A program made the position numbers and the translations under genes. Below the pieces are notes generated by a model. That model did no database searches. It was not told where the DNA came from and was given only the letters and a program-made list of their open reading frames with translations. Shown piece by piece: positions 1 to 35,627 of a stretch of 64,000 nt of DNA; within the stretch, counting starts at the first letter, position 1, and each line of letters begins with the position of its first letter. The stretch spans positions 20,108 through 84,107 of the forward strand of contig JAZLDI010000021.1 in the NCBI GenBank assembly GCA_045614665.1. The letters run 5' to 3'. Origin of the DNA: Candidatus Enterousia sp. Its GTDB lineage: Bacteria; Pseudomonadota; Alphaproteobacteria; Rs-D84.

Positions 1-392
1 TCGTTTATCCGCAGGCCACCAACATCCGGTAACCCAACACCCAATTTTCGTGCAATTGAATCTGTAAAGCCAACCTCTATACGACCAAAATTCCGCATTT
101 GATAAAAGCCAAAGGCCTCTCGAAATGCTTTACCGTCATCTGTTGCGGCGGCGTCCAACGCATACACTGCGCCAAATTTGTGATTTTCATTTGCGTTTAC
201 GTTGATTTCCCCACGCACGCGCCAATCCCCAATAAAAAGTGGTGTTTCAAAATCGGGCTGAATAATGCCGCCTGTTCCATATCCTGTTAATTTAAAATTA
301 AATTTACCAGCATCGTATTCAAGCGCATACGCCCCACCCCCAGACAATACCAAAGCAATTGTCGCAACATAAATTTTTCTGTAAAATCCCAT
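1..392 (-). CDS. outer-membrane beta-barrel (porin-like) protein, N-terminal part; gene runs off the window start
   Basis: ATG at 390-392 on the minus strand translates to MGFYRKIYVATIALVLSGGGAYA (signal peptide) followed by Gly/aromatic-rich strand-like sequence. No stop before the window edge, so it is absent from the ORF track. Confidence 0.5.
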   Translation of the reverse strand, partial: MGFYRKIYVATIALVLSGGGAYALEYDAGKFNFKLTGYGTGGIIQPDFETPLFIGDWRVRGEINVNANENHKFGAVYALDAAATDDGKAFREAFGFYQMRNFGRIEVGFTDSIARKLGVGLPDVGGLRIN

Positions 393-398
393 AATCCC

Positions 399-1310
399 TT
401 ATCCTTGACTTTCTTTCAAAATCGCATCACGCAGTTTATTATATGCGCGTTCTTCGATTTGACGTACACGTTCGCGTGAAATACCATATTTTTGTGCGCA
501 AGATTCCAGCGTTGCCACCGGATCTGATAAACGTCGTGCCTTTAATATTTCGCGGTCGCGTTCTGGTAATGCGTCCAGATGCTTGCGCAATAGTTCGTAT
601 CCACGTCGGCGAAATTCAATACGTTCCAGTGAATCTTCGATATTTGCACGATTGTCCGCCAGGTTAGACAGGATGTCTGATGCCCCCTCGTCCCCGACGT
701 GTGCGGGTGCGTTTAATGAAACGTCGCGTGCCCCCACGCGTGTTGCCATACGCTTTACATCGTTTTCCGGTACGTCCAGATATTCTGCGATTTGTTTTGT
801 TTGGTCATCACTTAAGTTGTTGTCCATTATCCCCAACGCCCGTTTTGCCCGCGCCAGGTTAAAGAATACCCGCTTTTGGTTCGCAGATGTTCCGATTTTT
901 ACAATTGACCAGTTATTAAGAATTGTTTCATAAATTTCCGCCCGTACCCAGAACATAGCATAGGTTGAAAATCTGAATCCTTTTTCTGGGTCGAACTTTT
1001 GCAGTGCCTGCATCAGGCCCATATTACCACTTGCGATTAAATCGCCAACCGGAATACCATAGTTTTTAAAATCATACGCCACCGACACCACCATTCGCAA
1101 ATGTGACGCCACCAGGCGTTCCCCCGCACTTTGATCGCGATTTTTAACCCATTGTGTGGCATATTCGTATTCTTCTTCGGCGGACAGCAGGGGGATTTTC
1201 TGTACTGTTTGTATATATTGCGCCAGGCCGGATTCATCACTGACCCCACGGGCGGCAACCAGTGAAGTATTTGTTTGTACCGGTAAAGCGTTCTTGATTT
1301 GCTTTTTCAT
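399..1310 (-). CDS. rpoH: RNA polymerase sigma-32 (heat-shock sigma factor)
   Basis: Sigma-70 family regions 2-4. RpoH-box-like QKRVFFNLARAKRAL. 303 aa. Confidence 0.9.
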   Translation of the reverse strand: MKKQIKNALPVQTNTSLVAARGVSDESGLAQYIQTVQKIPLLSAEEEYEYATQWVKNRDQSAGERLVASHLRMVVSVAYDFKNYGIPVGDLIASGNMGLMQALQKFDPEKGFRFSTYAMFWVRAEIYETILNNWSIVKIGTSANQKRVFFNLARAKRALGIMDNNLSDDQTKQIAEYLDVPENDVKRMATRVGARDVSLNAPAHVGDEGASDILSNLADNRANIEDSLERIEFRRRGYELLRKHLDALPERDREILKARRLSDPVATLESCAQKYGISRERVRQIEERAYNKLRDAILKESQG

Positions 1311-1363
1311 AACTTTTATAGTATATCATAATTTGATAATTATCAAGCACAGGAGATTTACAA

Positions 1364-2014
1364 ATGTCATCAATCTTATCAAGAAATCAAAAAGTTGTCC
1401 CGCAAAAGAAAACACGTCAAGAATATGCCGAAGATGCCCTTTATCGCGAGGTGTGGGAAGATGTAAATAACGAAAAGACATTAAAGTTTATAAAGAAATA
1501 CTATCGTTATTTAATTGCGGGTGCGCTGGTTGTTTTGATAATTGCGACCGGTTTTCAGATTGGTGCACGTCACATTGCGGCACAAAAAATGCATACCGCT
1601 GAAATGTATGAAGATGCCCTGGCCAGTGTTGATGCGAATAATTTGGCCCACTTTGCCGATGATGCATCTGGTGCGACGGCGGATTTAGCCCTTTTTCAGG
1701 CATATTTATTGGATGGTGATGTAAGTAAACTGGAACGTTTGGTAACCGATGGTGACACGCGTGATTTTCGTGACTTGGCACGCTTGCATATCGTAAATGT
1801 TCGTGGTGATGAGATGAGTGCCACGGATGTTGAAAAATATTTGTCTGATTTAGATACAAAAAGCTCTCCTTTTTATTACACCGCATCCCTGACCATTGCC
1901 CAGAAATATCTGGCCGATGGCAACCGCGAATCAGCAAACAAATGGATGGATAAAATTTTGAATGACAAAGATGCGCCGGCATCTATTGTTGGTACGGCAA
2001 CAACTCTGCGCTAA
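1364..2014 (+). CDS. YfgM-like membrane-anchored TPR-like protein
   Basis: Short cytoplasmic N-terminus, one TM (YLIAGALVVLIIATGF), periplasmic helical domain. Sits immediately upstream of a BamB-like gene, as yfgM does. Confidence 0.5.
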   Translation: MSSILSRNQKVVPQKKTRQEYAEDALYREVWEDVNNEKTLKFIKKYYRYLIAGALVVLIIATGFQIGARHIAAQKMHTAEMYEDALASVDANNLAHFADDASGATADLALFQAYLLDGDVSKLERLVTDGDTRDFRDLARLHIVNVRGDEMSATDVEKYLSDLDTKSSPFYYTASLTIAQKYLADGNRESANKWMDKILNDKDAPASIVGTATTLR

Positions 2015-2023
2015 GGATTAAAA

Positions 2024-2743
2024 ATGAAACGTGCAGTCTTGGGGCTTTTATCGGTATTGGCATTATGTGCGTGTGATAAACACGACCCGATTTTACCGGG
2101 CATACGTTCGCCAATTTTTGATATGCCACGTATAAACATCTTGAATGCAGATATTCAGAATCTGCCGGATGTGGCGTATGAACCATCTGGCACGGATTGC
2201 CCATATACACGTGATGCATCGAATGTTGTATGGGATGGCTCGCGCAAGGTTTTCAGTGGTTTCGCCACGGATAACGCAGTTGCTTCTGATATAAAGCCGG
2301 TGTGTGCTGGGAAATATATCTATGTCGGATTAACAACCGGCGAATTGGTAAAGATTGAACCAAGAACACGTAAAATAATGTGGATTGCGGACATCTATCG
2401 GGCCAGTAATCTGACCGGTGGTGCATCGATGTTGGATATTGTTGCCGAACCAATTGTTCGTGAAAATTATGTGTATGTGGGTGGGCTGGGGGATGCTTTT
2501 TGCAAGATAAACGCAACATCTGGTGCGCGCATCTGGTGCACGAATATCAGTGTTCCAACAGATTTTATTATTGCAGGTGACGCGGCATTTGTTGTGGGTG
2601 CGGATAAAAAATTGTATGCGGTGCGCCTGACCGACGGTGCGGCATATTGGACGGTGCCAGTTGAAAAAATTGCCACACCAATATATGAAAATAAAACCAT
2701 AACGGTTGGTAAACAACAATTTAATGCGGTAAATGGCAAATAA
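2024..2743 (+). CDS. bamB: BamB-like PQQ-repeat lipoprotein (short)
   Basis: Lipobox LALCAC. PQQ/beta-propeller-like repeats (YVYVGG..., KLYAVRLTDGAAYW). Position after the yfgM-like gene. 239 aa is shorter than typical BamB. Confidence 0.5.
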   Translation: MKRAVLGLLSVLALCACDKHDPILPGIRSPIFDMPRINILNADIQNLPDVAYEPSGTDCPYTRDASNVVWDGSRKVFSGFATDNAVASDIKPVCAGKYIYVGLTTGELVKIEPRTRKIMWIADIYRASNLTGGASMLDIVAEPIVRENYVYVGGLGDAFCKINATSGARIWCTNISVPTDFIIAGDAAFVVGADKKLYAVRLTDGAAYWTVPVEKIATPIYENKTITVGKQQFNAVNGK

Positions 2744-2771
2744 AAAACACCGGCATTTGCCGGTGTTTTTA
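2742..2771. terminator. rho-independent terminator hairpin (bidirectional)
   Basis: aaaaaacaccggcatttgccggtgttttt: A-tract, GC stem with ATTT loop, T-tract, between convergent genes. Confidence 0.6.
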
Positions 2772-4388
2772 TTACTTTTTCACAACGCCAAATCCGGCCG
2801 AGAAGAAGCGTTCCACATTTGCCGCAGACTCGGGGTCATATTCTTGTTCTAATAAACTGGCGCGTCCAACGGCCTCGGATGGTGTTGTGCCATCACCATA
2901 GTATTCCGTTGTCATATTAATTTGGGTTTTATTGGCCCAATCTTCGGTTGTGCTGACACCGTCAAACATTTCGCCATTGATTCCACTGAATTCTGTATTA
3001 TTAAATTTATACATATCGTTTTTAATGTTATCACCATTGCTAAGTTTTACCGTCACATTGTTGCCGTTGGTTGTATATTCTATATCATACCAATTAGAAA
3101 AGTTTGCAGTTAATATTTCTGTTCCGTTGTCAAACACCAAAGTGGCATTATTTGATTCTATGTCTAAATAGTTATCCGTTGCGACACCATTTTCGTCTTC
3201 TGAGTGATGCATTACAAATCCGACGGCTTTGCCATTAAATTCCATTGTCCCGGTCATTGAATTTTTATCAATGTTTTTTACATCGTATCCGCCTGCAAAC
3301 ACATATCGCAAATCTTCTACGTTATTTTTATCTGTTGCCAAATATTGTGTGCCAATTAATCTGCCGAAATCAGAATGTCTTAATCCGACGGTTGCGCCAT
3401 ATGCATCAACACTAACTGATTTTTCACTTGGTGTATAATATAGCCCTGTTCCATCCTTATCATATATTGCTTCTAGTTCGGTTGCAGACATCGGTGCAAA
3501 TAGCGACACAGACGTTATTTGGTTTATCAATTTTTGAATTTCCGCTTTGTTAATTGCTGGGTTGTATTGTGCTTCTTCTTCTAGCTTTTCAGAAAAAGCG
3601 GCCTTGATATTTTCAATCGATTCATTTGGATTATTTGTTTTTAATGTTAGTTGGCAAAATTGACCACATTTCAAAGCGTATTTATAAGCAGCTGATAAAA
3701 ACTTATTATTACTTTTTCTTTCAAATTCTAATTCTTGATTTCCCCAGTCATCAAACATTGCGATGCTTGTAATTTTTCCATTTTCTGTTTGTGTTATTTT
3801 AAGATGTTCTTCGGTCCAACCACGATTTCCCGTCACAAACAGCTTTTGATCAGCCAGGTTACTGGTTTTATGGTTCCAATTTTTAGGCTTGTTATTTTCA
3901 TCATCCCAATCAAAGAATCTGCGCAAAACGTGTTCGTGGTTATCTTTGATAAACTGTTTTCTGGCATCGTCACTTAAATTGTCGTAAACGCTGGCTTCAC
4001 CACCGCTTAATAAATAGGCTTTCTTTAAATCGTCATTATCTTTGCCGTCTGTGTTATTTATTGCAAAATCATACATGTTTTGATATTCAGCAATTGCATT
4101 ATCAAATTCAGAATTTTCATTTATGGCGGAAAAAGTACGTATTGCGCTGTTTCTGGAATGAACGGAGGATGTACCGCCGGCGTTTATTACACTGGGTGTA
4201 TCGCCAATTTTATCCACAACATATGCAATAATGTTACTTTTGTTATCTGCGCTATCCTGCATACTGGTTGTGGATAAATCTACGGCTGTTGGTGCACGTA
4301 CCTCACCCGATGTGTATGCACCACCACCGCCACCACCGGCACAGGCCGTCAATAATAACAAAGTTCCCATAATGTATGCAGATTTCAT
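2772..4388 (-). CDS. surface-lipoprotein-like protein with poly-Gly linker; TbpB/handle-domain-like C-terminal repeats possible
   Basis: Lipobox LLLTAC followed by GGGGGG linker. 538 aa. C-terminal GxxEFNGKAVGF and GEMFDG motifs and a terminal ...FGVVKK. No recognisable enzymatic motifs. Lies at the 3' side of tRNA-Val. Confidence 0.55.
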   Translation of the reverse strand: MKSAYIMGTLLLLTACAGGGGGGAYTSGEVRAPTAVDLSTTSMQDSADNKSNIIAYVVDKIGDTPSVINAGGTSSVHSRNSAIRTFSAINENSEFDNAIAEYQNMYDFAINNTDGKDNDDLKKAYLLSGGEASVYDNLSDDARKQFIKDNHEHVLRRFFDWDDENNKPKNWNHKTSNLADQKLFVTGNRGWTEEHLKITQTENGKITSIAMFDDWGNQELEFERKSNNKFLSAAYKYALKCGQFCQLTLKTNNPNESIENIKAAFSEKLEEEAQYNPAINKAEIQKLINQITSVSLFAPMSATELEAIYDKDGTGLYYTPSEKSVSVDAYGATVGLRHSDFGRLIGTQYLATDKNNVEDLRYVFAGGYDVKNIDKNSMTGTMEFNGKAVGFVMHHSEDENGVATDNYLDIESNNATLVFDNGTEILTANFSNWYDIEYTTNGNNVTVKLSNGDNIKNDMYKFNNTEFSGINGEMFDGVSTTEDWANKTQINMTTEYYGDGTTPSEAVGRASLLEQEYDPESAANVERFFSAGFGVVKK

Positions 4389-4484
4389 AATTATCCCCCT
4401 TGTACAATATGATTATATTCTAGAACACTTAAAAGCAATGGGTCAAACAATAAAAAAACCGGGACACGCCCGATTTATTTATTC

Positions 4485-4561
4485 TGGTGGGTGGTATTGG
4501 ACTCGAACCAACGACCTTTACGATGTCAACGTAACGCTCTAACCAACTGAGCTAACCACCC
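4485..4561 (-). tRNA. tRNA-Val (anticodon GAC)
   Basis: Reverse complement gives GGGTGGTTAGCTCAGTTGGTTAGAGCGTTACGTTGACATCGTAAAGGTCGTTGGTTCGAGTCCAATACCACCCACCA. Cloverleaf folds: 7-bp acceptor, anticodon loop TTGACAT, T-loop TTCGAGT, encoded CCA. Confidence 0.9.
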
Positions 4562-4597
4562 GCAAAACTTCCCCGATTATAACAGACTTTTTTCTAA

Positions 4598-4627
4598 TTG
4601 CAAATATTAATTGCTATGGGATATAAT
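4598..4627 (+). promoter_or_regulatory. sigma-70-like promoter: TTGCAA, 18-nt spacer, TATAAT
   Basis: ttgcaa at 4598-4603 and tataat at 4622-4627 with 18-nt spacing. Drives the roughly 170-nt non-coding stretch that ends at the 4781-4806 terminator. Confidence 0.4.
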
Positions 4628-4633
4628 ACCAAT

Positions 4634-4806
4634 TGTAATGGGGAACCCGTTATGCGAGATTAGAACTCTCGACCAACAGTCGTCTGCGCAGACGTTAATT
4701 GCTCCAACCCGTGGTTGGAGGGCGGTGAATATATTGAATAAGTCGCTGAGCATACTGTTGTGCAAAGTTCTAACCTCCAACCACCCCATATTGTGGTGGT
4801 TTTTAT
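4634..4806 (+). ncRNA. candidate small RNA, promoter-to-terminator unit of unknown family
   Basis: Near-consensus promoter upstream. Internal 8-bp hairpin CTCCAACC-cgtg-GGTTGGAG. Terminal CCACC...GGTGG hairpin plus TTTTTATTTT. No convincing ORF. Confidence 0.3.
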
Positions 4807-4830
4807 TTTAAGAAAAACAGGGGGTGGGTA

Positions 4831-5016
4831 ATGACGCTTGGTCAAGAGATCGAATATGTTCGTACACTGCGTGGATTTTCGGTTGTTTATATGTGTAATG
4901 CCCTGAATGTATTAGAGACCGATTATATGCACATAATTTCCCACAGTGGCCCTCTTAGTATATATCAGAAAATAATGCTGGTTGCGGCAACTGAATACCA
5001 ATTTGATTTGATATAA
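4831..5016 (+). CDS. small XRE/Cro-like helix-turn-helix protein (61 aa)
   Basis: MTLGQEIEYVRTLRGFS...ISHSGPLS matches the Cro/C1 HTH pattern LGxxIxxxRxxxGxS...IS..E.G..P. Preceded by a GGGGGTGGG Shine-Dalgarno-like stretch. Followed by the 5024-5053 terminator. Confidence 0.4.
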   Translation: MTLGQEIEYVRTLRGFSVVYMCNALNVLETDYMHIISHSGPLSIYQKIMLVAATEYQFDLI

Positions 5017-5023
5017 CATTATG

Positions 5024-5053
5024 AAAAAAAGCCGGCATTTGCCGGCTTTTTTT
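5024..5053. terminator. rho-independent terminator (bidirectional; overlaps the accC stop)
   Basis: aaaaaaagccggcatttgccggcttttttt. Confidence 0.6.
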
Positions 5054-6410
5054 ATTCGTCTTTTTTTAAAAAACTTTCAAGCCATTTATTGTCAAAGTTT
5101 AATTGTTTAACGTCTTTGTTGGCCAATAATTTTTGTTGTAGTGGGATTGTTGTTTTTACCCCCTCGATAACAAATTCATCCAATGCGCGTGTTGCACGCA
5201 TAATACATGCCGGCCTGTTTGGTGCATGGACAATAAGTTTTGCAATCATAGAATCATATGTTGCCGGAATTGTGTATCCGGTGTATGCCGCACTGTCCAC
5301 ACGAACGCCCATTCCACCCGCCGGCGCATAAAGTGTTATTTTGCCCGGGTTTGGAATAAATGTTTCTGGGTCTTCTGCATTGATACGAAATTCGATTGCA
5401 TGTCCATTTGGAATAACATTTGATTGGTTATACCCCAATTTTTCGCCGGCGGCAATTCGAATTTGTTCGCGAACTAAATCAACACCATATACCATTTCGG
5501 TCACGGGATGTTCAACCTGTAACCGCGTGTTCATTTCAAGGAAATAGAATTTGCCATCTTCGAACATAAATTCAAAGGTACCGGCATTTGTATAACCCAT
5601 TTTTTTGGCGGCGGCTTTGCAAACCTCTATCATATCGTCGCGCTGTTTTTGGGTTAAAATCGCGGCGGGACATTCTTCCATAACCTTTTGGTTACGACGT
5701 TGCAATGAACAGTCTCGTTCTCCAAAGATTACAACATTGCCGTGTTGATCGCCCAAAACCTGAAATTCAATATGGCGTGGATGGGTTAATAATTTTTCCA
5801 TATAAAGTGTATCATCACCGAACGCAGACTGTGCCTCGTTCCGGGTTAATTGATATGCCTCTGCCATGTCGTTCTGGGACATAACTGCGCGCATACCACG
5901 CCCGCCACCACCGGCTGCGGCCTTTAACATAACAGGATATCCGATTTTATCGGCGCATTCAATCGCGTGCTCCAAACTTATCACTGCCCCGTCCGAACCC
6001 GGTACCACCGGCAACCCGCATTCAATTGCAGTACGTTTGGCATTAACCTTGTCCCCCATTTTTTCAATCATATCTGGTGACGGGCCAATCCAAATCATTT
6101 TATGCTGTTCTACCTTGCGGGCAAAGTCCGCACGTTCAGATAAAAAACCATATCCTGGATGAATTGCATCCGAATTGGTCAGTAATGCCGCCGTCAAAAT
6201 CGCAGATTCATTCAGGTATGAATCACGCACCGCCGCCGGCCCGATACAAACGGATTCGTCTGCCAACTGTACGTGCATAGCATCCCGGTCTGCGGTTGAA
6301 TACACCGCAACCGTGCGTATACCCATATCGCGACACGCACGAATAATACGCAGGGCAATTTCACCACGATTGGCAATTAAAACTTTTTTTATTTGTGACA
6401 TTTTATTCAA
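5052..6410 (-). CDS. accC: acetyl-CoA carboxylase, biotin carboxylase subunit
   Basis: ATP-grasp biotin carboxylase: KVLIANRGEIALRIIRACRDMGI, glycine-rich loop. 452 aa. Immediately downstream of accB. Confidence 0.95.
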   Translation of the reverse strand: MNKMSQIKKVLIANRGEIALRIIRACRDMGIRTVAVYSTADRDAMHVQLADESVCIGPAAVRDSYLNESAILTAALLTNSDAIHPGYGFLSERADFARKVEQHKMIWIGPSPDMIEKMGDKVNAKRTAIECGLPVVPGSDGAVISLEHAIECADKIGYPVMLKAAAGGGGRGMRAVMSQNDMAEAYQLTRNEAQSAFGDDTLYMEKLLTHPRHIEFQVLGDQHGNVVIFGERDCSLQRRNQKVMEECPAAILTQKQRDDMIEVCKAAAKKMGYTNAGTFEFMFEDGKFYFLEMNTRLQVEHPVTEMVYGVDLVREQIRIAAGEKLGYNQSNVIPNGHAIEFRINAEDPETFIPNPGKITLYAPAGGMGVRVDSAAYTGYTIPATYDSMIAKLIVHAPNRPACIMRATRALDEFVIEGVKTTIPLQQKLLANKDVKQLNFDNKWLESFLKKDE

Positions 6411-6840
6411 TAACGATTAAAGGTTGGTCAAACTCAACCGCCGCCCCGTCTGTTACCAAAATTTCTTTGACGGTGCCGTCTTTGTCAGACTTGATTGGGT
6501 TAAATGTTTTCATTGCTTCGACCAGTGCGACTGTGTCCCCAGCCTTGACCGATGTGCCAACGGTAACGAATGGTTTTGCGCCCGGCTCTGGTGCCAGGTA
6601 TACAACCCCCACCATTGGTGATTTTAATGCGCATCCATTGATTTTATCTTCGCATGTTGCACCCATTTTTTTTGATTCAATGTTTGGTGCGGATACTGCA
6701 ACGGTTGCAGCTTGTTGTTTTGATAAATGAATATGTTTACGATACAGCCCGAACAAGAACTGACGTTCCAGGTTTAATTCAGTAATCCCCATTTCATCCA
6801 TAATCTTTGACATAGATTCCACGGTTGCACGAAATGACAT
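6403..6840 (-). CDS. accB: biotin carboxyl carrier protein of acetyl-CoA carboxylase
   Basis: C-terminal biotinyl domain with EAMK motif (VEAMKTFNPI). 145 aa. Overlaps the accC start. Confidence 0.9.
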   Translation of the reverse strand: MSFRATVESMSKIMDEMGITELNLERQFLFGLYRKHIHLSKQQAATVAVSAPNIESKKMGATCEDKINGCALKSPMVGVVYLAPEPGAKPFVTVGTSVKAGDTVALVEAMKTFNPIKSDKDGTVKEILVTDGAAVEFDQPLIVIE

Positions 6841-6912
6841 TTATAAATCCTTTTAATAAATTTTAATCATATCCCATAAATTCTATCACAAAGTACCACA
6901 TTGTCAAGCATA

Positions 6913-7158
6913 TCAGGGCACTGGGTCATAACCAAAACCGCCCCCCGGTCGACAGCGAAAAATACGCTTTATCCCCATCCACGTTCCGCGAAATGTGCCA
7001 TATTTATCAATTGCTTGCTTTGTATATTCGCTGCACGACGGGGTAAAACGACATGCCGCCCGTCCACCAATAAATGGCGAAATACACGCTTGGTACACCT
7101 GTACCAGTCCCATTGCAACCTGCTTTGCAATACCGTGATTATTTTTGTGATTGTTCAT
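6913..7158 (-). CDS. yidD: membrane protein insertion efficiency factor YidD
   Basis: Conserved ...SPF.GG.CRFTPSCSEY... motif. 81 aa. Overlaps the 3' end of rnpA. Confidence 0.85.
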   Translation of the reverse strand: MNNHKNNHGIAKQVAMGLVQVYQACISPFIGGRAACRFTPSCSEYTKQAIDKYGTFRGTWMGIKRIFRCRPGGGFGYDPVP

Positions 7159-7492
7159 TTTTATAGGTTTTTTTTATCCAATGTAACGCCTTGCGCATTG
7201 CGATGCGTCCTTCTTCCCTGGTGGCTTTTAGAATTGGTGCACGCGCCACGAATATATAATCCATATTTGGTAACATCATGTCGCTATAAAAACGAATCCA
7301 GTCCCGCAAAAGGCGTTTTGCGCGATTTCTGTCGACGGCGTGTTTAAAAGTTCGTTTTGTTACAACCAGTCCATATCGTGCATCATTTGGAAAACGTGCA
7401 TATTTTGCCCGCACAATAAAATACGACGACAGGCCTGATAAATCATCGGGCGAAACGGCGAAATCGCTATGTTTTTTTATTGTGTTACGCAT
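7139..7492 (-). CDS. rnpA: ribonuclease P protein component
   Basis: RnpA RNR-like motif (AVDRNRAKRLLRDWIR). 117 aa. Classical rnpA-yidD overlap. Confidence 0.85.
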   Translation of the reverse strand: MRNTIKKHSDFAVSPDDLSGLSSYFIVRAKYARFPNDARYGLVVTKRTFKHAVDRNRAKRLLRDWIRFYSDMMLPNMDYIFVARAPILKATREEGRIAMRKALHWIKKTYKNEQSQK

Positions 7493-7607
7493 AGCCCTTA
7501 TAATAACACATAAATTAAATAGTCAAACTTTTTTTGTGCCCGCGTCTTGATTTTTAGCAATCCCCGTTTTATAGTGACGTGAACGTATTTATAAATCATG
7601 ATTTTAG

Positions 7608-8666
<1,059 letters not shown>

Positions 8667-8667
8667 T

Positions 8668-8696
8668 AAAAAATGCCGGCAAACGCCGGCGTTTTT
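8668..8696 (+). terminator. rho-independent terminator after mreB
   Basis: aaaaaatgccggcaaacgccggcgttttt. Confidence 0.6.
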
Positions 8697-8751
8697 ATTT
8701 GATTTTATGGTGTGTTTTTCCTAGACTGAAATGTAACAGCAAAGGAATTTT

Positions 8752-9837
8752 TTGATGAAAATTTATGAACAAACCGAACTTGATTTTAAAGATGTTTTGA
8801 TTAAGCCAAAGCGTTCTTATATAAACTCGCGCTCTGAAACGGATGTGACACGTGAATATAAATTCAAATGGTGTCCGCGTAAAATTACGGGGACTGGTGT
8901 AATTACTGCGAATATGGCAACGGTTGGAACGTTTGAAATTGCGCGGCATATGATGCAACAAAAAATGTTTTGTTGTTTGCATAAACATTATTCTTTGGAT
9001 GAATTGATTAAATTTATCACAGAAAATGATTGCAGCGAATATGTATTTTTATCAATGGGTCTGCGCGATGATGATATTGCCAAGATGGATGAAATATTAA
9101 CCCGTTTCCCAGACAAATGTCGCAACGTATGTATTGATGTTCCAAACGCGTATATTCCACGTGTCAAAGACCTGGTTATTCGTATGCGTCAAAAATATCC
9201 AGATATTTTGTTGATGGTTGGCAATGCAGTGACGGCCGAATTGGTCGAAGATTTAATATTATCTGGTGCCGACATTATCAAGTGTGGCATCGGCAGTGGC
9301 AGTGCCTGTACCACACGTCGTATGACCGGTGTTGGTCGTCCACAATTGTCCACTATTTTTGAATGTGCCGATGTTGCCCACGGCATTGGTGGTATGATTT
9401 GTTCAGATGGTGGTATTGTCCATATTGGCGACGTATCCAAGGCATTTGGTGCCGGTGCAGATTTTGTGATGATGGGTGGATTTTTTGCCGGTTGCCCCGA
9501 GGTATCTGGTGACATAATCACAAAAAGATATCAAACGAACCAGTTGGATGAAAACGGCGAATTTATTATTGAAACAAAACAGTTCAAAGTTTTCTATGGA
9601 ATGTCATCCGAGTACGCACAAAAAACGCACTATTGCGGAATGCCATCGTATCGCGCCAGCGAGGGTCGCTTTGTAGAAGTACCTCTTAAACCATCAATTG
9701 ACCGCCTGTTACAAGATATCTTGGGGGGCTTGCGTTCGTGTATGACATATGTTGGTGCACGTCGCTTAAAAGATTTATCCAAGTGCACAACGTTTTATCG
9801 TGTAAACACACAATTAAATACAGTGTTTGAAAAATAA
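8752..9837 (+). CDS. guaC: GMP reductase
   Basis: Full-length match to the GuaC pattern (FKDVLIKPKRS..., GIGSGSACTTR, GGLRS.MTYVGA). 361 aa, no CBS insert, so GMP reductase rather than IMPDH. Confidence 0.85.
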   Translation: MMKIYEQTELDFKDVLIKPKRSYINSRSETDVTREYKFKWCPRKITGTGVITANMATVGTFEIARHMMQQKMFCCLHKHYSLDELIKFITENDCSEYVFLSMGLRDDDIAKMDEILTRFPDKCRNVCIDVPNAYIPRVKDLVIRMRQKYPDILLMVGNAVTAELVEDLILSGADIIKCGIGSGSACTTRRMTGVGRPQLSTIFECADVAHGIGGMICSDGGIVHIGDVSKAFGAGADFVMMGGFFAGCPEVSGDIITKRYQTNQLDENGEFIIETKQFKVFYGMSSEYAQKTHYCGMPSYRASEGRFVEVPLKPSIDRLLQDILGGLRSCMTYVGARRLKDLSKCTTFYRVNTQLNTVFEK

Positions 9838-9868
9838 TAAAAATGCCGGCAAACGCCGGCATTGTTTT
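9838..9868. terminator. rho-independent terminator (bidirectional)
   Basis: aaaatgccggcaaacgccggcattgtttt. Confidence 0.55.
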
Positions 9869-35550: not shown

Positions 35551-35627
35551 TGGTGGGTGTTGAGGGACTCAAACCCCCGACCCTCTCGGTGTAAACGAGA
35601 TGCTCTAATCAACTGAGCTAAACACCC
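35551..35627 (-). tRNA. tRNA-Val (anticodon TAC)
   Basis: Reverse complement gives GGGTGTTTAGCTCAGTTGATTAGAGCATCTCGTTTACACCGAGAGGGTCGGGGGTTTGAGTCCCTCAACACCCACCA. Anticodon loop TTTACAC, 7-bp acceptor, encoded CCA. Confidence 0.9.

Follow-up and report, generated by a model that had tools for sequence, protein, structure and literature searches.

The region at 2772–5016 of a 64,000-nucleotide (nt) stretch of Candidatus Enterousia sp. (contig JAZLDI010000021.1; the whole stretch is referred to here as the window) probably contains two independent units, for each of which a mechanism is proposed below. These are a lipoprotein locus on the 3' side of tRNA-Val(GAC) and, on the other side of the tRNA, a structured leader RNA followed by a small open reading frame (ORF) encoding a helix-turn-helix (HTH) protein; they would be neighbours only through their common abutment on the tRNA. 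Of the two, the unit formed by the RNA and the HTH gene, which the leader would control, is of greater interest. An initial annotation of this stretch had listed the tRNA-Val(GAC), the lipoprotein gene, an ORF-free promoter-to-terminator unit and an ORF of 61 amino acids (aa), all four of which were present as described and with accurate coordinates. It had also interpreted them together as the islet or remnant of an integrated element; this was borne out for the lipoprotein gene alone, which varied in presence and had a low G-C content (GC), and failed for the RNA and HTH gene, which were found beside accC in every relative. Loci are designated by L numbers and proteins by P numbers; the related contigs were all metagenome-assembled genomes (MAGs) labelled 'Alphaproteobacteria bacterium', with goat, sheep and deer gut as their sources.

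In every context, whether the lipoprotein gene was present or missing, and also where there was an integrase, the leader RNA stood directly upstream of the 61-aa ORF. In a more distant relative (L009–L014) the two were found together in the order mreB-RNA-ORF-mnmG, with neither tRNA-Val nor accC nearby. Homologues of the ORF were conserved at 55–90% identity, and the RNA was conserved better than the 61-aa protein, with compensatory changes present. To judge from these sequences, RNA and ORF have been conserved jointly and move as one unit, rather than being the cargo of an island, and the element-remnant interpretation is already contradicted for this pair.

A search pattern was derived from the window copy of the leader (TGGTYGGRKG-N45-70-CMYCCRACCAC-N8-14-GGTGGT). 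It occurred once in the window (0 expected by chance) and in 99 stretches of metagenome contigs, a single contig often having two or three; human gut and rumen were among the sources, and the IMG/VR viral contigs gave no matches. Seventy-six leader copies were non-redundant at 90% identity, and a profile search added 29 further copies that lacked the strict pattern. The single copy in the window was recovered by nhmmer at 4641–4806 (E = 7e-28). On inspection by eye, L026 (Bdellovibrionales, 38% identity) and L124 (73% GC) had probably been matched by chance, and both were left out. Several leader loci carried housekeeping genes 57–92% identical to proteins of the window, and the RNA family therefore resides in this alphaproteobacterial clade, the GC of which ranged over 32–53%.

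Searches with Rfam 15 (4227 models), run over 4400–5100 at E ≤ 10, identified nothing in 4562–4830; at the gathering score there was nothing but tRNA and terminator noise in the window, and nothing in 20 other leader copies. Identity as 6S, SRP or permuted tmRNA was considered and rejected, given that ARAGORN found no tmRNA and the fold was not rod-like. No description of the leader RNA was found in the library of papers searched, where its conserved strings recurred only as primers and aptamers and nothing relevant turned up on RNA motifs of gut Alphaproteobacteria, although publication elsewhere is possible. The leader is therefore put forward as a new multi-copy RNA family, absent from Rfam.

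The leader at 4635–4806 had a fold energy of -57.6 kcal/mol (z-score = -3.16; 0 of 200 shuffles folded as well), with a terminator-like hairpin and T-run at 4779–4806. Three mechanical ORFs that overlie it were not conserved, its relatives showing 1–2-nt indels and compensatory changes. Structural results were obtained from a 72-sequence alignment by RNAalifold and pair counting, which favoured helices P0, P2, P3, the long-range P1 and the terminator (Table 1). Paired cells amounted to 93.7%, compared with 81.2% in shuffles, and double-changed cells numbered 357 compared with 112; the covariation score was 0.415, compared with at most 0.10 when partners were slid, and none of 500 shuffles reached the observed values. 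In P1, a single pair had as many as 33 compensatory cells out of 72. P1 was prolonged by another long-range helix, b/b', whose mean length was 7.7 bp when both strands came from one copy and 5.4 bp when they came from different copies. A short hairpin, c/c', enclosed b'; at one of its pairs, 35 copies had AU and 34 had UA. Alternative partners for GGGG were the CCC just past the P1 5' strand, or CCUCC. The sub-families aligned inconsistently across the P4 stem.

A second fold was indicated by an 11-nt perfect inverted repeat (I20) between the P3 3' arm and 4774–4784, through which GUGGUUGGAGG (4711–4721) pairs with CCUCCAACCAC (4774–4784). The core so formed encloses P4, with its GAAUAUAUUGAAUAAG loop, and the c/c' hairpin. 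The segment 4774–4784 overlaps P1a/P1 at its 3' end and the terminator in its 5' arm; the core fold excludes P3, P1 and the terminator. When enforced, it cost 6.6 kcal/mol in the window copy and 7–16 kcal/mol in four other copies; the terminator fold is therefore the default.

Support for P3 and the antiterminator that was independent of the search pattern came from three variant classes and five tandem modules in which they covaried. In L016, L025 and L112 the three segments had changed together to ACCUGAC/GGUCGGGUG/CACCCGACC, and in L027, L055 and L110, likewise together, to CUCCUG/GUCAGGAGG/CCUCCUGAC. The tandem modules were found between gap and frr at L047:5178–6024 (also in L125 and L051), where one promoter was followed by five core modules of ~80 nt. 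Each comprised a closing helix, a hairpin with the GAAUA...GAAUAAG loop and a c/c' hairpin, and nothing beyond the core of the alternative fold, which is therefore a self-contained domain. The five closing helices were compensatory (GGGG/CCCC, GGAGA/UCUCC, GGGGA/UCCCC, GGGGG/CCCCC and GGAUG/CAUCC). After the array came two complete leader-type elements, each with a promoter and terminator of its own; no ORF lay behind the array or either element. Rfam gave no match to the array at E ≤ 0.05. A remodelled leader of ~290 nt was observed at L016:129–493 and L025:5690–5971, with extra hairpins, the GGUCGGGUG/CACCCGACC variant and the same small ORF downstream.

The position of the leader relative to coding sequence was consistent across the family. 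Of 89 copies, 86 had a T-run behind the terminator stem, a feature outside the search pattern. A same-strand ORF, preceded by a Shine-Dalgarno (SD) sequence, began within 120 nt in 79 of the 87 copies with enough downstream sequence. The median distance from leader terminator to start codon was 30 nt family-wide; in the window the SD lay ~19 nt past the terminator stem, and ~30 nt separated the end of the stem (4801) from the ATG (4831), so that there is no room for a separate promoter. At the other end of the leader, the promoter block was conserved throughout the family (TTG...TGnTATAAT). In the window, its palindromic TTGCAA (4598–4603) would suit the -35 element of two divergent promoters, that of tRNA-Val (4604–4576, minus strand) and that of the leader (plus strand), and the block TTTTTCTAATTGCAAATA in 4576–4627 was kept in relatives.

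The products encoded behind the leaders were diverse. There were 17 cysteine-rich secreted proteins and two further secreted families, 11 members of the small HTH family of the window, distant genomes included, and two other XRE families (HTH_31, E = 3.5e-6; HTH_3, E = 5e-14), besides EcoRI-type methylases (E = 7e-123), lipoproteins, an HsdM and a helicase. The cassettes of leader and gene are themselves strain-variable. Between two convergent terminators, L055 had a 1.26-kb insertion (L055:7279–8539) at a place where the window was empty (~9838–9866); it contained a promoter, a leader copy of the CUCCUG/GUCAGGAGG variant, and a gene for a 270-aa cysteine-rich secreted protein with a signal peptide. 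As the same leader heads many genes for secreted or surface proteins, XRE proteins and DNA methylases, it defines a regulon in the clade.

The 170-nt unit, which had been described as small-RNA (sRNA)-like, was real in its promoter and terminator, and is better read as a putative cis-acting terminator/antiterminator leader of the HTH gene. Positions 4598–5016 would be one transcription unit, in which a sigma-70-type promoter drives a leader of ~172 nt with two exclusive folds. In the default and stabler fold (P1a/P1/P1b, P3 and the terminator hairpin), transcription would end at 4806. In the alternative, the P3 3' arm would pair with CCUCCAACCAC to give a three-way-junction core, composed of the closing helix, P4 with its GAAUA...GAAUAAG loop, and c/c'. 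Formation of this core would remove the 5' arm of the terminator and allow RNA polymerase to read into the gene for the 61-aa XRE-type repressor, and a factor acting in trans would turn the gene on by stabilising the core.

Certain points weigh against this mechanism. The P3 3' arm, the segment complementary to it and the terminator stem were all demanded by the search pattern, and their near-invariance in the 72-sequence alignment is therefore a matter of ascertainment. The b/b' and c/c' helices, taken here as putative alternative states, might instead form a pseudoknot; a classical H-type pseudoknot was rejected because the b'–c' linker, at 0–5 nt, was judged from geometry to be too short. 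The copies in L047 that have no ORF indicate that relatives of the leader can act without a downstream gene. Finally, what was observed is how the leader is built, that it is conserved, that both folds covary and which genes it accompanies; which way the switch works and what kind of ligand acts on it are purely inferred. Two other interpretations of parts of the leader were discarded: a leader peptide beginning at the GUG after the GGAGG of the P3 3' arm, the frame of which was unconserved and contained hairpin insertions of variable length, and a kissing interaction between the P0 loop and J2/3, for which the alignment, viewed by eye, gave no covariation.

Were the unit a stand-alone sRNA acting in trans, with the ORF expressed independently or by incidental read-through, its own promoter and intrinsic terminator, the thermodynamic preference for the terminated fold, and the related elements and tandem modules without an ORF (L047, L125 and L051) would all be expected. 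This is nonetheless unlikely, given that 79 of 87 copies have an SD-preceded, same-strand ORF after them, the median distance being 30 nt, and that the window has no room for a promoter; furthermore, the conserved, covarying antiterminator pairing would be purposeless in a pure sRNA, and the RNA and ORF relocate together. The two roles are compatible, in that the terminated leader could also act in trans.

A serious rival, possible without being probable, is that the leader is a riboswitch for a metabolite or second messenger (e.g., a cyclic dinucleotide), which binds the core or the P1-closed fold and so sets termination. Riboswitches for c-di-GMP are found upstream of surface-protein genes, and the regulons of c-di-GMP-I and -II are similar in make-up to the genes found here, which were rich in secreted or surface proteins and regulators. 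The many copies per genome, the often highly conserved unpaired nucleotides and the platform of a multi-helix junction with a terminator would also suit a riboswitch. Against this, the riboswitch models of Rfam were unmatched even at E ≤ 10, no transporter or biosynthetic gene lay downstream, the two GAAUA loop repeats are more typical of protein sites, and five tandem, gene-less modules under one promoter are hard to explain for a small-molecule sensor. Because of the duplicated GAAUA half-sites and the ORF-less tandem core arrays, a dimeric RNA-binding protein is somewhat more likely than a metabolite to be the trans factor for the terminator/antiterminator leader. The tandem core arrays (L047) may be decoy or sponge RNAs. 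Tentatively, these elements might be combined in a previously unknown global control system of which the leader is the cis element: a dedicated factor, probably a dimeric RNA-binding protein, would lock the ~80-nt core and antiterminate a strain-variable regulon, and the tandem arrays would titrate that factor by a Csr-like sponge logic.

The 61-aa protein is a divergent HTH protein of XRE/Cro type, as its predicted structure indicates. The model (mean predicted local distance difference test, pLDDT = 73.6) had four helices, at residues 3–14, 18–25, 29–37 and 44–55, and its matches in Foldseek were SinR (template modelling score, TM = 0.70; root-mean-square deviation, rmsd = 1.6 Å), C.Esp1396I, CapH (TM = 0.78), HipB and DdrO; overall, these structural matches had TM of 0.70–0.78, rmsd of 1.5–2.0 Å and a probability of 1.00. 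A profile of the ORF family matched the N-terminal HTH of a transcriptional regulator in the PDB (E = 0.0034), and hhalign placed the family in register with the leader-driven HTH_3 cluster (E = 5.9e-4). Taken together, the fold matches, the profile match and the in-register alignment mean that the term 'Cro-like HTH' holds at the level of fold, and the XRE/Cro reading in the initial annotation was thereby supported. The absence of any match to Pfam HTH_3 or HTH_31, or to NCBIfam, at E ≤ 1, and the hhalign probability of only 29%, count against the assignment. For P0018–P0021 (L004:8001–8267 and relatives), gene callers gave a product of 87–89 aa that started inside the leader RNA; the conserved start of the gene was the ATG matching window 4831, and the overextended annotations can be corrected.

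On the other side of the tRNA, the lipoprotein gene is, on comparison with relatives, a hypervariable, single-gene accessory locus. It was absent from L006–8, L021, L023 and L025, and in L007 the tRNA came directly after the terminator of the BamB-like gene. The empty tRNA-Val sites anticipated by the islet interpretation were thus found in relatives with flanks 78–92% identical to the window (L007, L021 and L023), the flanks of L021 and L023 being 89.8–91.6%, or 90–92%, identical. The indel corresponded to window 2773–4484 and comprised exactly one gene, its promoter and one extra terminator. The hairpin at 2743–2770 was its left edge, from which the tRNA was ≤~30 nt further on in the empty-site relatives; the hairpin at 4456–4476 was within the segment missing from those relatives and was an imperfect repeat (I1) of 2739–2773. 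Atypical composition, which had also been suspected, was observed: the gene had the lowest GC (0.379) and the lowest GC at third codon positions (0.325) of 37 long ORFs, the window mean GC being 0.442 (sd = 0.024).

Where the site was occupied, the alleles differed greatly. In L018–20 (GCA_017403085.1), with flanks 87–91% identical, the same site held a mosaic allele of 52% identity, in which the first ~180 codons had 78–91% aa identity to the window and the remainder 25–57%. In L055, the lipoprotein allele was just ~45% identical, and its flanks were 97.9% identical to the window, which places L055 in the same species. The C-terminal two-thirds of the window protein was nearer to P0004 and P0007 (55–68%), which are linked to genes for the surface lipoprotein assembly modifier (Slam), than to P0003, the allele at the same site, and it follows that the alleles are mosaics.

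The 3' side of tRNA-Val is a recombination hot spot. In L005 and L024 (L005:1081–2800, L024:5550–5700) a phage-type integrase and an HTH_17 excisionase-like gene abutted a tRNA-Val that was cut at the position equal to window 4518, and ARAGORN identified no intact tRNA there. A degenerate, partial second tRNA-Val lay between the intact tRNA and the leader RNA at L023:5650–5740 and L025:5560–5650, and may be the scar of a past integration. In L004, metG was found on the tRNA-Val 3' side. A hairpin-forming sequence of 20 nt, CACRAAGCCTTGGCGAAGTG, occurred at the empty tRNA-Val site of L021 (5635–5654) and at L043:221–240, which are unrelated intergenic places; it did not occur in the window.

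That all of 2772–5016 is the remnant of a mobile element, which entered at tRNA-Val with the lipoprotein, RNA and Cro-like genes on board, would account for the adjacency to a tRNA, the integrase and excisionase at the same tRNA in L005/L024, the degenerate tRNA copies in L023 and L025, the low GC of the lipoprotein gene, and the presence of an XRE gene, these being frequent in mobile elements. It is very unlikely all the same, because the RNA and ORF occupied the tRNA 5' side, beside accC, in relatives without the lipoprotein also, and because the window had no integrase, att repeat or other element genes, the indel being exactly one gene with its promoter and terminator. Window 1–9000 contained no integrase ORF, and the tRNA 3' end had no att-type repeat within 2600–4900, where only the two terminator hairpins were alike (I1); an element origin for this stretch, as first suggested, thus lacked both hallmarks, and 'recombination-exchanged accessory gene' fits better than 'element remnant'. 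Strains would gain, lose and swap this accessory gene by recombination through conserved flanks, namely the terminator of the BamB-like gene on one side and the tRNA with the signal-peptide region on the other. Such recombination would produce mosaic and highly divergent alleles, as expected for a host-exposed protein.

The 538-aa product began with MKSAYIMGTLLLLTAC-AGGGGGG, comprising the lipobox LLLTAC, Cys16 and a run of six glycines, and ended in FGVVKK. The lipobox, the poly-Gly stretch, the C-terminal motifs and the position on the 3' side of the tRNA were all as initially described, and A15, C16, G18 and G19, together with F384, G386, A388, G390, F533 and G534 in the C-terminal region, were invariant in a family alignment of 17 members; A15 and C16 were also near-invariant among 71 diverse members. 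A word-indexed search had produced only 17 relatives of the lipoprotein, compared with 558 cluster representatives in an exhaustive profile search (177 at E ≤ 1e-30). Common to the family was mainly a C-terminal part of ~220 residues, joined to differing N-terminal parts. A Pfam scan of the 71 diverse members gave a single related match, HphA_C (E = 8e-5). With no membership in known families by sequence, these 558 representatives, for which there is no Pfam model, constitute a new family, and the evidence suggests that it is of TbpB/fHbp type.

The AlphaFold2 (AF2) model of the lipoprotein (pLDDT = 80; predicted TM-score, pTM = 0.75) comprised a disordered, Gly-rich tether, helices at 46–160, a beta region at 159–251, helices at 258–307, and a 12-strand beta domain at 314–537 for which pLDDT was ~90. 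When the model was compared with 350,542 PDB chains by Foldseek, its best matches were TbpB (4o4u; E = 3.8e-4, probability 0.97) and an fHbp chimera (probability 0.99), in agreement with the resemblance first proposed. Predicted Slam substrates have been characterised by a lipobox, adjacency to Slam, and an eight-stranded, TbpB-like barrel (Hooda 2017, PMC5449769).

The strongest evidence that the lipoprotein is of the Slam/TbpB kind is genomic context. All four of the homologues looked up outside the tRNA-Val site shared a cluster with a Slam gene (PF04575 SlipAM/DUF560 with PF24575 TPR_Slam), which came immediately after P0010 and P0015; for P0007 and P0012 a single SLP-like gene intervened. 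The clusters of P0010, P0007 and P0012 had a second, unannotated gene beside the homologue, and at P0010 and P0007 this gene had a C-terminal domain in common with the window protein (~31% identity). The second genes were located at L001:13086–14603, L003:11700–12773 and L126:6029–7636 (535 aa in L126); in L001 and L003 their products were lipoproteins with the same C-terminal domain and different N-terminal parts. No TonB-dependent receptor was seen near the Slam-linked homologues. Slam homologues were plentiful in the clade, numbering 576; those with a source name were labelled as alphaproteobacterial MAGs, and some were annotated 'surface lipoprotein assembly modifier [Alphaproteobacteria bacterium]'.

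From these observations, the window protein is most likely a putative Slam-dependent surface lipoprotein. Like TbpB and fHbp, it would be exported to the surface, once lipidated at Cys16, by a Slam (type XI) translocon, here one whose gene lies elsewhere in the genome; the Gly-rich linker would tether it, and the barrel that Slam recognises would be the C-terminal beta domain. Several results speak against this. The window lipoprotein had no Pfam match at E ≤ 1, and the TbpB_B_D and Lipoprotein_5 models, which the initial annotation had named as candidate families, were negative; nor was there a sequence match in NCBIfam or the PDB (PDB phmmer and two PDB profile searches). The TM-score of the whole model to TbpB was just 0.2, so that the eight-stranded barrel is not established domain by domain. 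No Slam gene was found in the 64-kb window by tblastn, and the Slam dependence of this gene is therefore inferred. The lack of sequence-family matches, the low TM-score and the absence of Slam nearby would equally be expected of an ordinary, periplasm-facing outer-membrane lipoprotein with a superficial likeness to TbpB. This alternative is distinctly improbable, since Slam was clustered with 4/4 homologues elsewhere, the paralogues in those clusters had the same C-terminal domain, TbpB and fHbp were the top structural matches among 350,542 chains, and allele diversity was extreme in near-identical strains, as for exposed antigens.

An SLP-family protein was found behind no leader copy, and no leader was found in the Slam loci L001–L003; in function, therefore, the lipoprotein locus and the leader unit are not linked. 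The coordinates of the features are collected in Table 1. Housekeeping genes flanked the region: to the left, those for an rpoH-like sigma factor, a DUF2659/TPR protein and a short, BamB-like lipoprotein; to the right, accC, accB, rnpA and mreB. The DUF2659/TPR_21 protein and the BamB-like lipoprotein that follows it (window 1364–2743) were kept as a pair in relatives; the latter is unusually short (239 aa) and matched only part of the BamB propeller models. A second tRNA-Val, with anticodon TAC, was located on the minus strand at window 35551–35627.

Table 1. Features of the tRNA-Val(GAC) region, with positions in the window.
Feature	Position	Strand	Basis
Palindromic bidirectional terminator, common to the BamB-like gene (2024–2743, +) and the lipoprotein gene	2743–2770	.	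terminator scan
538-aa lipoprotein gene	2772–4388	-	ORF list
Promoter-like site of lipoprotein gene, TTGACC-18-TAGAAT	4417–4446	-	consensus match only
Terminator-like hairpin 3' of tRNA-Val	4456–4476	-	terminator scan
tRNA-Val(GAC)	4485–4561	-	ARAGORN; Rfam tRNA model, 71.4 bits
Leader RNA promoter, TTGCAA-18-TATAAT	4598–4627	+	promoter scan
Structured leader RNA, ~172 nt, ORF-free	~4635–4806	+	promoter, terminator, fold, alignment
P0	4635–4642/4646–4653	+	leader alignment
P1a/P1	4656–4667/4766–4777	+	leader alignment
P1b (b/b')	4674–4680/4754–4760	+	leader alignment
P2	4681–4685/4690–4694	+	leader alignment
P3	4702–4709/4713–4720	+	leader alignment
Core domain (predicted antiterminator state)	4711–4784	+	inverted repeat I20, covariation
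P4	4723–4748	+	leader fold
Terminator stem, with T-run	4779–4785/4795–4801	+	leader fold
Shine-Dalgarno-like GGGGGTGGG of small ORF	4820–4829	+	sequence
61-aa XRE/Cro-type HTH gene	4831–5016	+	ORF list, homologues, model
Bidirectional terminator, common to the small ORF and accC (5052–6410, -)	5024–5053	.	terminator scan

Slam-type display is known mainly from pathogens of Neisseria, Moraxella, Haemophilus and Acinetobacter, and would be extended by these results to a commensal clade of gut Alphaproteobacteria. The extreme replacement of alleles in near-identical strains makes the lipoprotein a candidate determinant of host interaction or phage reception. For RNA biologists, the leader represents an orphan regulatory class of which both conformations are already defined by covariation, and for microbiome research it offers a handle on the control of variable surfaces in an uncultured lineage.

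Among known systems, the L047 array resembles the decoy RNAs CsrB and RsmZ in having repeated modules under one promoter and no ORF, each module keeping its covarying closing helix. It differs from them in having neither GGA-loop motifs nor an Rfam match to CsrB/RsmZ, and in that its modules are three-way junctions; the array itself is not in the window. The leader has in common with riboswitches (c-di-GMP-I/II) and attenuators (PyrR, TRAP, HutP, Bgl/Sac RAT) a promoter-proximal RNA with exclusive helices and a terminator before the SD and ORF, and likewise many copies per genome and a regulon rich in surface proteins and regulators. Unlike those systems, its 5' half is almost wholly antisense to the 3' core, and its core occurs in stand-alone tandem arrays. 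The 61-aa protein shares with the SinR N-domain, C.Esp1396I, CapH and HipB a four-helix, lambda-repressor-like fold with the HTH at helices 2–3, and a small size, and departs from known XRE/Cro regulators in falling below Pfam detection and in having MCNAL, a conserved and unusual motif, in helix 2. Other leader-driven genes of the RNA family encode genuine HTH_3/HTH_31 proteins, and methylases are found among the neighbours. The 61-aa gene would be under an RNA leader; controller C proteins, by contrast, regulate themselves at operator DNA.

Like the Slam substrates TbpB, LbpB, fHbp and HpuA, the lipoprotein has a lipobox, a Gly-rich tether and a predicted C-terminal all-beta domain, for which TbpB and fHbp are the best structural matches; its homologues are likewise clustered with Slam, often beside paralogous lipoproteins, and allelic diversity is likewise high. 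Hemophilin and HphA are secreted Slam substrates, the translocon being DUF560 (PF04575). In Neisseria, fHbp is unlinked to Slam, as is the lipoprotein gene of the window here. The protein differs from the TbpB group in having no detectable similarity to TbpB_B_D or other Pfam families, and in its N-terminal half, which is predicted to consist of a helical domain and a small beta domain. Finally, its host differs from those of known Slam systems, being an uncultured, commensal alphaproteobacterium of the gut rather than a beta- or gammaproteobacterial pathogen.

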